Source: Candidatus Woesearchaeota archaeon (GTDB taxonomy: Archaea > Nanobdellota > Nanobdellia > Woesearchaeales > UBA10216). From it: a stretch of 64,000 nucleotides of DNA. Made by a program: the position numbers and the translations under genes. Where the stretch lies: NCBI GenBank assembly GCA_016192915.1, contig JACPTF010000007.1, positions 38,623 through 102,622 on the forward strand, written 5' to 3'. Below are positions 10,100 to 52,543 of the stretch, one piece after another; positions within the stretch are counted from its first letter, which is position 1; each line of letters begins with the position of its first letter. The notes under the pieces were generated by a model that did no database searches, had not been told where the DNA came from, and saw only the letters and a program-made list of their open reading frames with translations.

Positions 10100-10263
10100 T
10101 GGGCTCGCCCAGACATCCTCACTGGCGTTCGGGGCACAAATCGCTGATGCGATTGTGCCCAGTCGGTTTTTCACCGACTTGGGCATTGCCGCCGGGCGCC
10201 AATATTCGAACTGGGGACATCTTCCACGTCAAGGAAGCATCATAACCACTAGATCACGAGCCC
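10100..10263 (-). tRNA. tRNA-Val (anticodon GAC) with 91-nt T-loop intron
   Basis: Minus strand: GGGCTCG...CTTCC-TTGACGT-GGAAG, ATGTC, CCCAG-TTCGAA | intron 10204..10114 | T-CTGGG-CGAGCCC-A. Confidence 0.75.
10135..10183 (+). repeat. twin-hairpin element copy B (49 nt), core of the tRNA-Val intron
   Basis: CACAAATCGctgatgCGATTGTG CCCAGTCGgtttttcacCGACTTGGG. Confidence 0.8.
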
Positions 10264-13050: not shown

Positions 13051-13157
13051 GAATAAGATTTGAATGCGTTTCTGATCAACGCGTTTTCTTGTCAACCTTC
13101 TTTCAAAGCCGTTTTTGGTCAAGCTTTTTGCGAACCACTGTGAGCAAAAAGGTTGAA

Positions 13158-19903: not shown

Positions 19904-20150
19904 TGTAAATAACGCCAGGCCAGGGAACTTCGCTTCTTCAGCAGAAGCTTCGAACCCTGATGTCCTTGGGGGACAACCGTTTTTCAGACGGTCGCAGGTA
20001 CCACATCCCGCCTGCCTGGCGTGCAGCAGACGTCTGCCGCAACAAAAAAATGAAATTCTAAGATTGATATGCCTTGCCCTTCAAAAGTTGAAAAATATTC
20101 GGCATATCCAGAAAGATTGCGGCAGGTGTCATAAAGTTTTCAAAAAATTA

Positions 20151-34559: not shown

Positions 34560-34805
34560 GGGCCGGTAGTTAAACCTGGTAAAGGGTTACTGTTAGCGCT
34601 CTCCAGAGTAACGCGCCGCTGGCCGCGGTGTGACCCTTTTTAGAAAAGGGTCAATCAAACCCAAATCGTGCCGTGCACGATTGGGCCCAGTCGGCTAAAG
34701 CCGACTTGGGAACCGTAAAGGCTTCGGGTTCAAACAGCCCTTTTGTTCGCCACTGCTCACAAAAGCGCTGGCGGAAAAACGGGCCTGAAAGTCCCGACCG
34801 GTCCA
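34560..34805 (+). tRNA. tRNA-Ala (anticodon GGC) with three non-canonical introns
   Basis: GGGCCGG/CCGGTCC acceptor with G3:U70 and A73. D arm GTTA-AACCTGGTA | ~27 nt | TAAC. Anticodon arm CGCCG-CTGGCCG-CGGTG. Variable-region intron ~34631-34718. T arm TCGGG-TTCAAA | 34735-34791 | T-CCCGA. Confidence 0.6.
34629..34710 (+). repeat. composite element (GTGACCC..GGTCAATC hairpin + twin-hairpin copy F) forming the tRNA-Ala variable-region intron
   Basis: tgtgaccctttttagaaaagggtcaatcaaa, then CCCAAATCGtgccgtgcaCGATTGGG CCCAGTCGgctaaagcCGACTTGGG. Confidence 0.8.
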
Positions 34806-34861
34806 CTCAATCTTTTTAGTTGCTCTGGCAACCAAAAAGCTTGACCAAAAACGGTGGATAA

Positions 34862-36316: not shown

Positions 36317-36503
36317 GTCGGGATAACTCAGCCTGGCTAGAGTGCGGCGCTCATATGTTTGAGCGATGAGCCGGCATTGCTGGCGATGAACTTACTCTAC
36401 CAGAACGGGGAGACGCCGTTGTCGCGAGTTCAAACAGCCCTTTTTCCTCGTGCGCTCGGCAAAAGCGCTGGCGGAAAACGGCCTGGAAGTCTCGCTCCCG
36501 ACA
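36317..36503 (+). tRNA. tRNA-Met/Ile2-type (anticodon CAU) with two introns
   Basis: GTCGGGA-TA-ACTC-AGCCTGGCTA-GAGT-G-CGGCG-CTCATA | 36356-36412 | A-CGCCG-TTGTC-GCGAG-TTCAAA | 36435-36489 | T-CTCGC-TCCCGAC-A. Not initiator-like (no G29-31). Confidence 0.7.
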
Positions 36504-36534: not shown

Positions 36535-37716
36535 ATGAAAATCGCGCTCGTATGCCCTTATGACATAGCATACCCTGGCGGGGTAACCAATCACATTACT
36601 CATTTTGCCCGCTATGCCCGCAAGATGGGGCATGATGTTACAATAATCGCTCCAGCATCAAGAAAAATTGCCAGCGAGGGATTTGTCAGCGCAGGAAAGG
36701 CGGTTCCGCTGCCTGTGAAAGGCGGGACGGTTTCAAGGCTGGGGCTCTCTTTCTGGAACTTCCCTAAAATAAAAAAACTTTTCAACAGCTCAAAATTTGA
36801 CGTCATACACGTTCACGAGCCAGAGGCGCCCCTCCTCGGCCTGTTTGCACTGGCCTACGCAACCCACTACAAAAGCGCCATAATCGCAACATTCCACACA
36901 AACTCGCCACACAACGCCTTTACAAAGGCGTATAGCGCATTCCTCAAATCAACCAGCATCCAACAGTTCCTCATGAAAAAGATAGACGCAAGGATAGCTG
37001 TCTCAAAAGCAGCAAGGCAATTCATTGCCAGATACGCCACGGGGGAATACACCATAATCCCAAACGGAGTTGACACTAGAAAATTCACGCCAAAAGCGAA
37101 ACCCATTGAAAAATTCAGGGACGGAAACCTGAACCTGCTGTTTGTCGGAAGGCTCGGCAACAATGAGAAGAGGAAAGGCCTGAAATACCTTGTCACGGCA
37201 TTCAACAAGCTGCACAGAACCCACCCAAACACGAGGCTAATAGTAGTCGGACCCGGAAAGCCTGACGGAGAAACGAAAAAGCTGCTCAGGCGATACGGCA
37301 ACAGAAGCATAGTATTCGCAGGAAAAGCAACTTCCGAAGAATTGCCAAGGTACTATGCAACGGCAGACATCTTCTGCTCACCAGCAACCCATGGCGAAAG
37401 CTTTGGAATGGTCCTCGCAGAAGCCATGGCATCTGGAAAGCCTGTGGTTGCCTCGGACATTGACGGCTACAGGGAAGTCCTTGGCAAAAGCGGCAAAGCC
37501 GGGATTCTTGTGCAGCCAAAAAATGCTGATGAGCTTGCAGCGGCACTTGAAAAGCTGGCAGACAGCGGCCCACTGAGGAAAAGAATGGGCGCCAACGGCC
37601 GCTGGCTTGTGCAAGGGCAATTCAGCTGGGACGTTGTTGCGCTGCAGGTTCTGGAAGTTTATGAGAAAGTTATTGCGGCAAAACGGCAGCGAAAAATAGT
37701 AACTGCAAAAGTTTGA
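36535..37716 (+). CDS. GT4-family glycosyltransferase
   Basis: ESFGMVLAEAMASGKPVVASDIDGYREV (E-x7-E region). Two Rossmann halves. Confidence 0.85.
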   Translation: MKIALVCPYDIAYPGGVTNHITHFARYARKMGHDVTIIAPASRKIASEGFVSAGKAVPLPVKGGTVSRLGLSFWNFPKIKKLFNSSKFDVIHVHEPEAPLLGLFALAYATHYKSAIIATFHTNSPHNAFTKAYSAFLKSTSIQQFLMKKIDARIAVSKAARQFIARYATGEYTIIPNGVDTRKFTPKAKPIEKFRDGNLNLLFVGRLGNNEKRKGLKYLVTAFNKLHRTHPNTRLIVVGPGKPDGETKKLLRRYGNRSIVFAGKATSEELPRYYATADIFCSPATHGESFGMVLAEAMASGKPVVASDIDGYREVLGKSGKAGILVQPKNADELAAALEKLADSGPLRKRMGANGRWLVQGQFSWDVVALQVLEVYEKVIAAKRQRKIVTAKV

Positions 37717-37749: not shown

Positions 37750-37889
37750 CGCCGCGGCAGGGACTTTCAACACTCGTTGAAAGCTACGAGCTCTCAGCGA
37801 GTTTGTTTGAACCCCGAAGCCCTTGCGGGCACCAGTTTGCTTTTCTGCAAGTTCAAGACTGGCGCACTACCAGGTTATGCGACCGCGGC
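37750..37889 (-). tRNA. tRNA-Ser (anticodon UGA) with two introns
   Basis: GCCGCGG-TC-GCAT-AACCTGGTA-GTGC-G-CCAGT-CTTGAA | 14 nt 37851..37838 | A-ACTGG-TGCCCGCAAGGGCTT-CGGGG-TTCAAA | 42 nt 37805..37764 | T-CCCTG-CCGCGGC-G. Confidence 0.75.
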
Positions 37890-51493: not shown

Positions 51494-52543
51494 ATGGATT
51501 TTGGGAGCTACAAATACAGGGAAGATATTGAAAAGGCGCTCAAGAGCTTCCTGCCTGATAAGCTGACAGCAGATTGGGCTGAGAAAGCCATTGGGAAAGC
51601 AAAATGGAAGCAGGACGCAGAAGCCCTGACAAAAGCCATTAGCGAGCCTGTGTGGGACTTTCTGAACAGGGGTGGCAAGCGGTTCCGGCCCATTGCAATG
51701 CTGATGTGCTGCGAGGCTGTAGGCGGCAACCCGAAAAAAATTTTGCCATTCACTGTGATTCCAGAGCTGATTCATAACGGAACCCTCGTTGTTGATGACA
51801 TCGAGGACAACTCAGACCTAAGACGAGGGAAGCCTGTCCTTCACAAGATTTTCGGCGTTGACATCGCAGTAAATGCAGGGAACACGCTATGCTTCCTGCC
51901 ATACATAATCATCCGCGATTCTGACTTACCCGCGGAAATGAAAAGAAGGGCTTACGAGATAATAAGCACAGAACTGCTGAAGTGCCATTTTGGGCAGGCG
52001 ATTGACATATGGTGGCACAGCGGAAAATCAGGGCGAATTCCTAGTGAAGAGGAATACCTCCAGATGTGCGCCAATAAAAGCGGTTCGCTTGCCTGCATGA
52101 CCGTGAAACTCGGCGCACTGCTTGGCGGGGGAAGCAACAGGCAGGTTGAGGCTCTTGGAAATTTTGGCCAAGCAGCCGGCGTCGTCTTCCAAATCCGGGA
52201 TGATATCCTTAACATTGCAGAGAACAACCGCATAGGGAAGGAATTCGGGGACGACATTAAGGAAGGAAAGAGGACGATGCTTGTGATTCACACGCTTAAT
52301 TCTGCCAGCAAAGATGAGCGGGAACGCCTGCTTGCCATACTTAACATGCACACGAAGGATGAGAGGCTGCTGGAGGAAGCAATTAGCATCATTAAAAAAT
52401 CCGATTCGATAGCTCATGCCGAAAATGTGGCTCGCCAGATAACCGAGAACGCGTGGCACGAGGTAGATGCAGTACTGCCAGAATCAGAAGCCAAGGGCCA
52501 GCTTAAAGAGCTTGCGCAGATGCTGATAAGCAGGTCGGTTTAA
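51494..52543 (+). CDS. idsA: polyprenyl (geranylgeranyl) diphosphate synthase
   Basis: FARM LVVDDIEDNSDLRRG and SARM FQIRDDILN. Confidence 0.85.
   Translation: MDFGSYKYREDIEKALKSFLPDKLTADWAEKAIGKAKWKQDAEALTKAISEPVWDFLNRGGKRFRPIAMLMCCEAVGGNPKKILPFTVIPELIHNGTLVVDDIEDNSDLRRGKPVLHKIFGVDIAVNAGNTLCFLPYIIIRDSDLPAEMKRRAYEIISTELLKCHFGQAIDIWWHSGKSGRIPSEEEYLQMCANKSGSLACMTVKLGALLGGGSNRQVEALGNFGQAAGVVFQIRDDILNIAENNRIGKEFGDDIKEGKRTMLVIHTLNSASKDERERLLAILNMHTKDERLLEEAISIIKKSDSIAHAENVARQITENAWHEVDAVLPESEAKGQLKELAQMLISRSV

Follow-up and report, generated by a model that had tools for sequence, protein, structure and literature searches.

The window (the whole 64,000-nt stretch that was analysed, G000:C20:38623-102622) belongs to an archaeal genome, G000, of 1.198 Mb in 20 contigs, with approximately 48% GC and a completeness of 92.9%. 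For a protein encoded in the window, the closest named relative was 86% identical and came from a Candidatus Woesearchaeota metagenome-assembled genome from Northern California groundwater. Two tRNA genes of the window, tRNA-Ala(GGC) and a tRNA(CAU) of the elongator Met type, are each interrupted in the T-loop, at position 59/60, by a short intron of the bulge-helix-bulge (BHB) type (Table 1). A preliminary description of this DNA had pointed to these two introns, at 36435-36489 and 34735-34791, and both sequences were found where it had placed them.

Table 1. Coordinates of the tRNA genes, introns and trailer repeats of the window discussed in the text.
Feature	Position in window	Position on contig C20	Strand	Remarks
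tRNA(CAU) gene, elongator Met type (G1:C72, T54)	36317-36503		+	Hand parse, spliced sequence, syntenic orthologues in 6 congeners
Canonical 37/38 intron of tRNA(CAU), 57 nt	36356-36412		+	Hand parse
T-loop (59/60) BHB intron of tRNA(CAU), 55 nt	36435-36489		+	Class A core 36435-36478, then closing strand GGC, H-strand TGGA, AG of 3′ bulge
tRNA-Ala(GGC) gene, three introns (D-loop, variable region, T-loop)	34560-34805		+	Orthologues with 0-3 introns give mature sequence
T-loop (59/60) BHB intron of tRNA-Ala(GGC), 57 nt	34735-34791		+	Class A core 34735-34778
Class C repeat (hairpin + GCTTGACCAAAAA-CGG), 3′ trailer of tRNA-Ala	34808-34851	73430-73473	+	
Class C repeat, 3′ trailer of the window's minus-strand tRNA-Leu	13112-13156	51734-51778	-	

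The exact boundaries of the two introns were given by intron-less orthologues whose sequence equals the spliced sequence, namely tRNA(CAU) in the congeners G003 and G002 and tRNA-Ala in G002, G005 and G008. Excision in silico of either insert produced a 7-nt TTCAAAT T-loop together with a closed T-stem and acceptor stem. The exons of the two genes are unrelated, with T stems GCGAG vs. TCGGG and acceptor stems GTCGGGA vs. GGGCCGG; the acceptor stem of tRNA-Ala reads GGGCCGG/CCGGTCC and contains G3:U70. For tRNA genes with multiple introns, isotype calls by ARAGORN were unreliable and hand parsing was used, and the assignment of one His-like gene mentioned below is uncertain. Elsewhere in G000 (C15:16024-16200, minus strand) we observed a tRNA with anticodon TAT, of the Ile-UAU type, in the presence of which an agmatidine-type tRNA-Ile2(CAU) would be unnecessary, and this supports the reading of the tRNA(CAU) of the window as Met. 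An Rfam scan of the window at gathering thresholds detected one uninterrupted tRNA only and no family on the introns, and by reading we found no C/D box (no RUGAUGA/CUGA pair) and no K-turn in the intron.

When the Met and Ala introns were aligned using MAFFT, their mean column identity was 84%, in line with the approximately 80% that had been estimated by eye, and above the 70% similarity used for transposed introns (sensu Fujishima 2010). Their first 10 nt, CAGCCCTTTT, are identical, and over the last ∼30 nt, CAAAAGCGCTGGCGGAAAA(A)CGG(G)CCTGRAAG, the differences amount to one substitution and one 2-nt gap; the 15 nt in the centre show essentially no relation, and this stretch is the covarying hairpin described below. 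The 18-mer AAAAGCGCTGGCGGAAAA occurs exactly twice in the window, whereas shuffled sequence would give 0.17 matches with up to 3 mismatches allowed, which places the similarity beyond low-complexity A/T runs. The terminal TGRAAG that both introns share has to be read differently, because pairing with the T-loop forces it, and it is therefore convergent and no evidence of homology. What the preliminary description had said about this pair, namely that they are similar introns at the same position within unrelated exons, thus agrees with our comparison, and the homology it had proposed holds in the core of the introns but not in their 3′ TGRAAG.

The core shared by the two introns defines a repeat, which we refer to as class A, with the layout CAGCCC-TTTT-hairpin-AAAAG-CSCTGGSGG-AAAA-CGGCTG. 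The stem of its hairpin opens with a T-run and an A-run, the top is hypervariable, and a 10-nt box, GCSCTGGSGG, lies downstream. Its two arms, CAGCC(C)TTTT and AAAACGGCTG, form an inverted repeat, and the element also contains a palindrome internally. To examine covariation, we aligned 30 class A cores from the genus, collected with a search pattern that allowed all four combinations at positions 3 and 8 of the box. Three variable stem pairs covaried, with 43 double-change cells compared with 16 in shuffles (0/500 shuffles were as high), and among 28 distinct sequences, box positions 3 and 8 were G..C in 15, C..G in 13, and unpaired in none; this covariation fits pairing in either RNA or DNA, and since template switching in a DNA palindrome could yield it, it is no proof of RNA function. 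In a third subfamily, the 5′ arm, the box and the 3′ arm are altered together and read CAACCC, GCGTTGACGG and GGTTG, respectively.

Both introns of the window fall on a predicted BHB motif. For the Met intron, this comprises an h helix GCGAG/CTCGC, an H helix TTCA/TGGA (4/4) and an h′ helix GCC/GGC, and for the Ala intron, h TCGGG/CCCGA, H TTCA/TGAA (4/4) and h′ GCCC/GGGC; the bulges are in both cases AAC and AGT, each divided after its second nucleotide. The h′ helices thus have 3-4 bp, with one A.C mismatch beside the bulge, and minimum-energy folds gave a rod closed by the T stem. In the pre-tRNA, the arms of class A would pair as the inner helix (h′) of the motif, with the T stem as its outer helix, and UUCA or UUCG of the T-loop would pair with UGAA or CGAA of the intron to form the central 4-bp helix, which would leave the splice sites in two 3-nt bulges. 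The archaeal splicing endonuclease could then excise the insert, and the normal T-loop would be restored. We found one gene for this endonuclease (EndA) in G000, in the region of C1:143270-143869, which encodes 199 aa with N and catalytic domains, and the best solved relative of which is the Nanoarchaeum equitans alpha subunit (3iey_A), the catalytic alpha subunit of a heterotetramer. All 10 class A T-loop introns of G000 lie on the predicted BHB motif, with the H helix paired at 4/4 positions in nine of them and an h′ helix of 3-5 bp in nine, and the H2 strand of the intron tracks the T-loop of the host, with CGAA in place of TGAA in TTCG hosts.

We determined the distribution of class A by a whole-genome motif search in G000 and by a strict pattern that was applied to 10 congeners and to 30 genomes outside the genus, of which 14 represent the rest of the family and 16 the rest of the order. 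A covariance model built from copies of the genus was applied to its 11 genomes. G000 contained 13 matches to the family model. Ten of these are T-loop (59/60) introns, in as many isoacceptors: Arg(TCT), Tyr(GTA), Asp(GTC), Lys(TTT), Val(CAC), Ile(TAT), His(GTG)-like, Glu(TTC), Ala(GGC), and Met(CAT). A further match is the 37/38 intron of tRNA-Leu(CAG), where the copy follows TTCAGA, a look-alike of TTCAAA. One G000 copy runs into a 14-nt tandem array. By our reading, approximately 27 tRNA genes of G000 appear to carry a 59/60 intron, so that class A, with at least 10, accounts for more than a third; the other ∼17 have the same BHB and unrelated or other-repeat interiors. Three further candidate 59/60 T-loop introns with valid BHB ends and non-class-A interiors were observed on the minus strand of the window (37764-37805, 19927-19948, and 10114-10204), one of them built from a twin-hairpin repeat.

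Beyond G000, the strict class A pattern was found in 8/10 other species of the genus, in 0/14 genomes of other genera of the family, and in 0/16 of other families of the order, while the covariance model gave at least 57 matches spread over 11/11 genomes of the genus (13 in G000, 10 each in G005 and G010, 8 in G007, and down to 1). About 45 of 51 class A copies that could be placed lie in or directly beside tRNA genes, and all single copies in T-loops are in sense orientation. Class A is thus confined to one genus and is present within at least 11 isoacceptors of G000.

Two sister classes, B and C, share the T-run hairpin with class A. Class B (GGACCC...GCGCCCCCGGAAAAACG) lies mostly between genes and also constitutes the anticodon intron of tRNA-Gly(GCC). 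Of class C (hairpin + GCTYRACCAAAAA-CG), at least 21 copies exist, several of them directly 3′ of tRNA ends. The resemblance that had been noticed between the two introns and the 3′ trailers of the Leu and Ala genes of the window traces to class C (Table 1), and the same trailer layout, TTTT-hairpin-AAAAGCTYRACCAAAAACGG, was also found after two other Leu genes. Class A likewise extends beyond introns, as copies were found in tRNA trailers, downstream of a stop codon, and in front of an ABCE1-like gene. At what is apparently the same post-stop-codon site, G000 has class B and G010 class A. Orientation and nesting vary as well. The anticodon intron of Leu(TAA) contains a single antisense class A copy in G005 and G008 and a sense copy at the same site in G010, composite introns contain inverted second copies, and other repeats are nested inside class A.

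At three non-intron copies of class A or B, 10-25 nt from the end of the adjacent gene are directly duplicated so that they flank the repeat (G000:C1:230780-230980 on the minus strand, G001:C36 near 1371, and G001:C14 near 5124). For an amidotransferase-like gene and for an ABCE1-like gene, the duplicated piece is the 5′ end, present twice in each case and diverged in the former; in the remaining case it is the 3′ end of a tRNA, the second copy of which is followed by CCA. These pieces represent either target duplications that are long or nascent mRNA/tRNA introns. Separately, at G000:C3:17290-17500, outside the window, we observed a promoter-like locus in which a TATA-like box and a leader (CCCTAGCCGGGCA..TGTCCAGTGTCCAGTGG) precede class A, and the unit GGCTGGCGGAAAAC is repeated in tandem 8-9 times; the orthologue in G005 (C39 near 17861) shares the leader, and its array is made of a 14-nt unit that has diverged. 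A permissive Rfam scan of the tandem-array locus returned no match, and the locus may encode a small RNA that repeats the class A box.

We then compared the T-loops of orthologous genes, for which the syntenic block Ala - transporter - HIT - Met, kept across relatives, provided the frame. At the tRNA(CAU) T-loop, class A is present in G000, G004, and G008, class C in G006, class A together with an inverted class A in G005, and class C together with an inverted class B in G001, and there is no intron in G003, in G002, or in genera g9 and g3. At the tRNA-Ala T-loop, G000 has class A, G006 and G007 have class A split by a nested twin-hairpin repeat, G003 has an unrelated 19-nt hairpin intron, and G002, G005, and G008 have none. 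The 59/60 introns of the tandem Asp-Lys genes are also found in genera g9 and g11, with short unique hairpins, and within the genus of G000 this slot is occupied by class A, class C, a related hairpin-tail repeat, or unique sequence. Since the Asp/Lys slot is older than the genus and the Met and Ala T-loops are empty in relatives, we conclude that the repeat both enters empty T-loops and refills old slots.

As a species reference, we used a tree of RpoB, in which the genus is monophyletic (97% support), G008 and the pair G002 and G003 branch early, and internal nodes are weak. Given this weakness within the genus, gain and loss are not fully polarised, and we limit our claim to at least two events per gene. 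The glycosyltransferase gene beside tRNA(CAU) had been considered as a species marker and was dropped in favour of RpoB owing to its erratic evolution. Among congeners, the identity of this gene (36535-37716 of the window) varies between 86% and 52% and does not parallel that of its neighbours, and the gene appears to be a fast-evolving or exchanged surface-related gene. In another side observation, a tRNA-Ala(GGC) on a short contig from genus g9 (L178, G041:C77:2940-2995) had exons 100% identical to those of the query genus; it could be a binning contaminant or a transfer.

The preliminary description had suggested testing whether the phylogeny of the introns conflicts with that of the tRNAs. 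We compared the hairpins of the 17 T-loop copies that have an orthologue in the data set, and found that the nearest relative was in another tRNA host for 15/17 and in the same host for 2/17. Same-host pairs and different-host pairs were equally similar, with mean identities of 0.566 and 0.544. The hairpin of the Met intron matched a copy in a different tRNA of G006 (acceptor GGGGCTG) at 15/16 positions, while the G000 orthologue of that tRNA carries an unrelated 92-nt intron and the Met orthologue of G006 itself carries class C. The Ala hairpin was closest to the Tyr intron on another contig of G000 (14/16), and one 16-nt hairpin, GTTCGCAGCGGCTCAC, was found in Arg (G000), in a long-arm tRNA (G005), and in Val (G007), with either box type. 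As the hairpins measure a mere 8-16 nt and have a CGC-WGCG-GCG theme in common, some of these cross-host identities could be convergent. A scheme in which the outer frame is inherited vertically and the hairpin is swapped as a cassette was also considered; it is true for the Ile introns of G005 and G009 and the Tyr introns of G006 and G007, but was not significant in a permutation over all pairs (p about 0.22) and was rejected.

The Ala and Met introns of the window are thus not each other's nearest relatives. The preliminary description had argued for intron transposition or gene conversion between the two genes, and while homology and the conflict between introns and tRNAs both stand, a direct exchange between Ala and Met is not supported. 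Its two-gene picture has widened into a family that spans the genus, of which Met and Ala are true members. Likewise, its idea of a mobile intron holds in essence, but the unit that would move is also found antisense, in anticodon-loop introns, in trailers, and after protein genes.

We searched for an enzyme that could mobilise the repeat. The Y1 transposase family (PF01797) had no match in G000, and Y1 genes are present in 2/10 congeners only, G002 and G005; the G002 copy that was inspected has no class A-like ends. G000 encodes one tnpB only, and no reverse transcriptase was found in this genome (92.9% complete). We identified neither a constant target sequence or tetranucleotide before the copies nor a short target-site duplication at the T-loop copies. 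An IS200/IS605 origin was rejected given the lack of Y1 in G000, of matching ends where these were inspected, and of a constant target tetranucleotide.

From these data, we conclude that the Met and Ala introns are probably copies of a genus-specific, palindromic repeat associated with tRNA genes, which would be copied as DNA, either into BHB introns or as such introns, and be neutralised by splicing. The copies would spread via a transposition-like process or via template switching or ectopic conversion, the repeat would create new 59/60 introns (Met, Ala) or refill old slots (Asp, Lys), and the copies would persist because splicing renders them harmless. The likeness of the Met and Ala introns would then reflect the shared ancestry of the repeat and, in the last 6 nt, convergence. 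A process at the DNA level is favoured by the antisense, inverted, nested, post-stop, trailer and gene-upstream copies together with the lack of a detected reverse transcriptase, and a dispersed repeat that colonises or creates intron slots fits better than an intron that transposes as an intron. Random DNA insertion does not describe this process unless selection filters heavily, since the copies lie mostly at tRNA genes and single T-loop copies are all in sense; the latter requires either strong selection for a working BHB or a process that preserves orientation.

A bolder version of this reading, which we put forward tentatively and to which we give distinctly less credence, is that class A is active and generates new tRNA introns. 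The element would carry the inner BHB helix with it, insert into tRNA loops and be immediately spliceable, and the covarying box, which is also present in the promoter-driven tandem array, would be the handle for a mobilising or binding factor. If this is true, the genus shows a route by which archaeal BHB introns arrive.

The main rival is mobility at the RNA level, in which an excised intron would pair, via UGAA, with UUCA of another pre-tRNA (in the T-loop, or in the UUCAGAA anticodon loop of Leu-CAG), be inserted by reversal of the endonuclease and ligase reactions, and return to the genome by reverse transcription and recombination. The sense orientation of all single T-loop copies is what such a process would leave, as is an intron that bears a strand complementary to the T-loop, a BHB geometry preserved at every site, and the placement of the lone G000 37/38 copy behind a mimic of TTCAAA. 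We nonetheless consider it unlikely. The reverse transcriptase it calls for was not found in the 92.9% complete G000, two species have an antisense copy in their Leu(TAA) intron, composite introns contain antisense copies as well, and further copies lie after protein genes and in trailers. Moreover, H2 always fits the T-loop variant of its host, as is expected if this strand is part of the slot and not of the mobile unit.

Class A could also be a selected functional RNA module, either a protein-binding or regulatory element or a stable or circular small RNA derived from the intron. The perfect covariation of box positions 3 and 8 and of the hairpin pairs would suit such a role, and so would the concerted change of both arms and the box in the third subfamily and the repetition of the box, in 8-9 tandem units, at a promoter-like G000 locus with a diverged array at the G005 orthologue. 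Constraint on a module of this kind is hard to reconcile, however, with sister-species orthologous tRNAs that have no copy or an unrelated sequence at the same place, with a distribution limited to one genus, and with an antisense copy in the same intron slot; neither an Rfam match nor, by reading, a C/D or K-turn motif was found, and we regard a functional module as rather improbable.

Gene conversion confined to the neighbouring Ala and Met genes, which are 1.7 kb apart, has a parallel in genome G014 of genus g5, where the T-loop intron of the syntenic Ala gene and that of the Met gene are identical over 40 nt, unrelated in sequence to class A and present in only these two copies in the genome. 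We take this pair as an independent replicate, which also counts in favour of the reading we prefer, and as a sign that copying of T-loop introns between tRNA genes is recurrent in this archaeal family. For the window, local conversion is very improbable, given that the Ala hairpin is nearest to Tyr on another contig (14/16), the Met hairpin is nearest to a G006 intron in another tRNA (15/16), and the family occupies nine further genes, spread over six contigs. That the similarity stems from chance, from low complexity, or from nothing but the constraint of the splice motif, to which the A/T runs and the terminal TGRAAG (constrained or simple) might have pointed, is scarcely credible and was dismissed on the strength of the shuffles (0.17 expected against the exact matches observed), the ∼17 other G000 59/60 introns with the same BHB and unrelated interiors, the restriction to one genus, and the presence of CAGCCC, GCGCTGGCGG and CGGNCTG, which are neither simple nor required by the BHB.

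The reading we prefer, spread of a dispersed repeat at the DNA level, involves a kind of event that is already known, as large-scale transposition of tRNA introns has been described in Thermoproteales, where similar introns occur in distinct tRNA genes (Sugahara 2008; Fujishima et al. 2010; as presented in section 2.5 of bioRxiv 10.64898/2026.10.13.758758 and in PMC4090602). Going by the account in that section, the two systems have in common highly similar introns in distinct tRNAs of one genome, each lying on a valid BHB, often at non-canonical positions and incongruent with the tRNAs. Compared with the same account, the present family differs in its host, a DPANN Woesearchaeota genus, in its concentration at 59/60, and in its inverted-repeat arms, covarying hairpin and box, as well as in class A copies that are antisense, nested, in trailers or after protein genes, and in turnover between congeners. 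In DPANN, a non-canonical 59/60 BHB intron has been described in pre-tRNA-Cys of ARMAN-2 (PMC3239211), with which our introns share the position, the protein-spliced type (predicted here), a DPANN host, and an endonuclease of the broad-specificity type; the ARMAN-2 introns are described as single introns, whereas here a multi-copy repeat family is involved.

The repeat itself resembles bacterial REP/BIME elements and MITEs in its 40-60-nt length, compensated hairpin, inverted-repeat arms and dozens of copies, and in its lineage-specific subfamilies and composite and inverted doublets. It differs from them in that no RAYT/Y1 was found in G000, in the lack of a regular target duplication at the T-loop copies, in the location of nearly all copies in tRNA introns, and in its archaeal host. 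In Asgard archaea, repeated recent gains of BHB introns have been mapped by comparing relatives, with intron families across tRNAs nearly absent (1.5%) and the route by which introns arrive stated as open (bioRxiv 10.64898/2026.10.13.758758). Here, in contrast, at least 10 of approximately 27 candidate T-loop introns belong to one cross-tRNA family tied to a dispersed repeat. We regard as new the way in which the repeat element is built, its connection with copies that lie outside tRNA genes, and the dense series of presence and absence with fast turnover in DPANN congeners. These results bear on how archaeal tRNA introns are gained, and link intron gain to a dispersed repeat family. The genus offers a natural experiment in which the same slot is empty, filled, refilled, inverted or nested among sister species, and the mechanism becomes testable via population metagenomes, transcriptomes, and in vitro endonuclease assays.

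Finally, we observed five occurrences of a unit that combines the leader of the C3:17290-17500 locus with a class B hairpin, including G000:C5:18700, C8:27230 (minus strand), C1:54440 (minus strand), and C3:84700-84790. At the last of these, the leader and a degenerate class B unit lie, in divergent orientation, just upstream of the only tnpB of G000 (C3:84791-85975), and this unit beside tnpB could be a derivative of an IS end.
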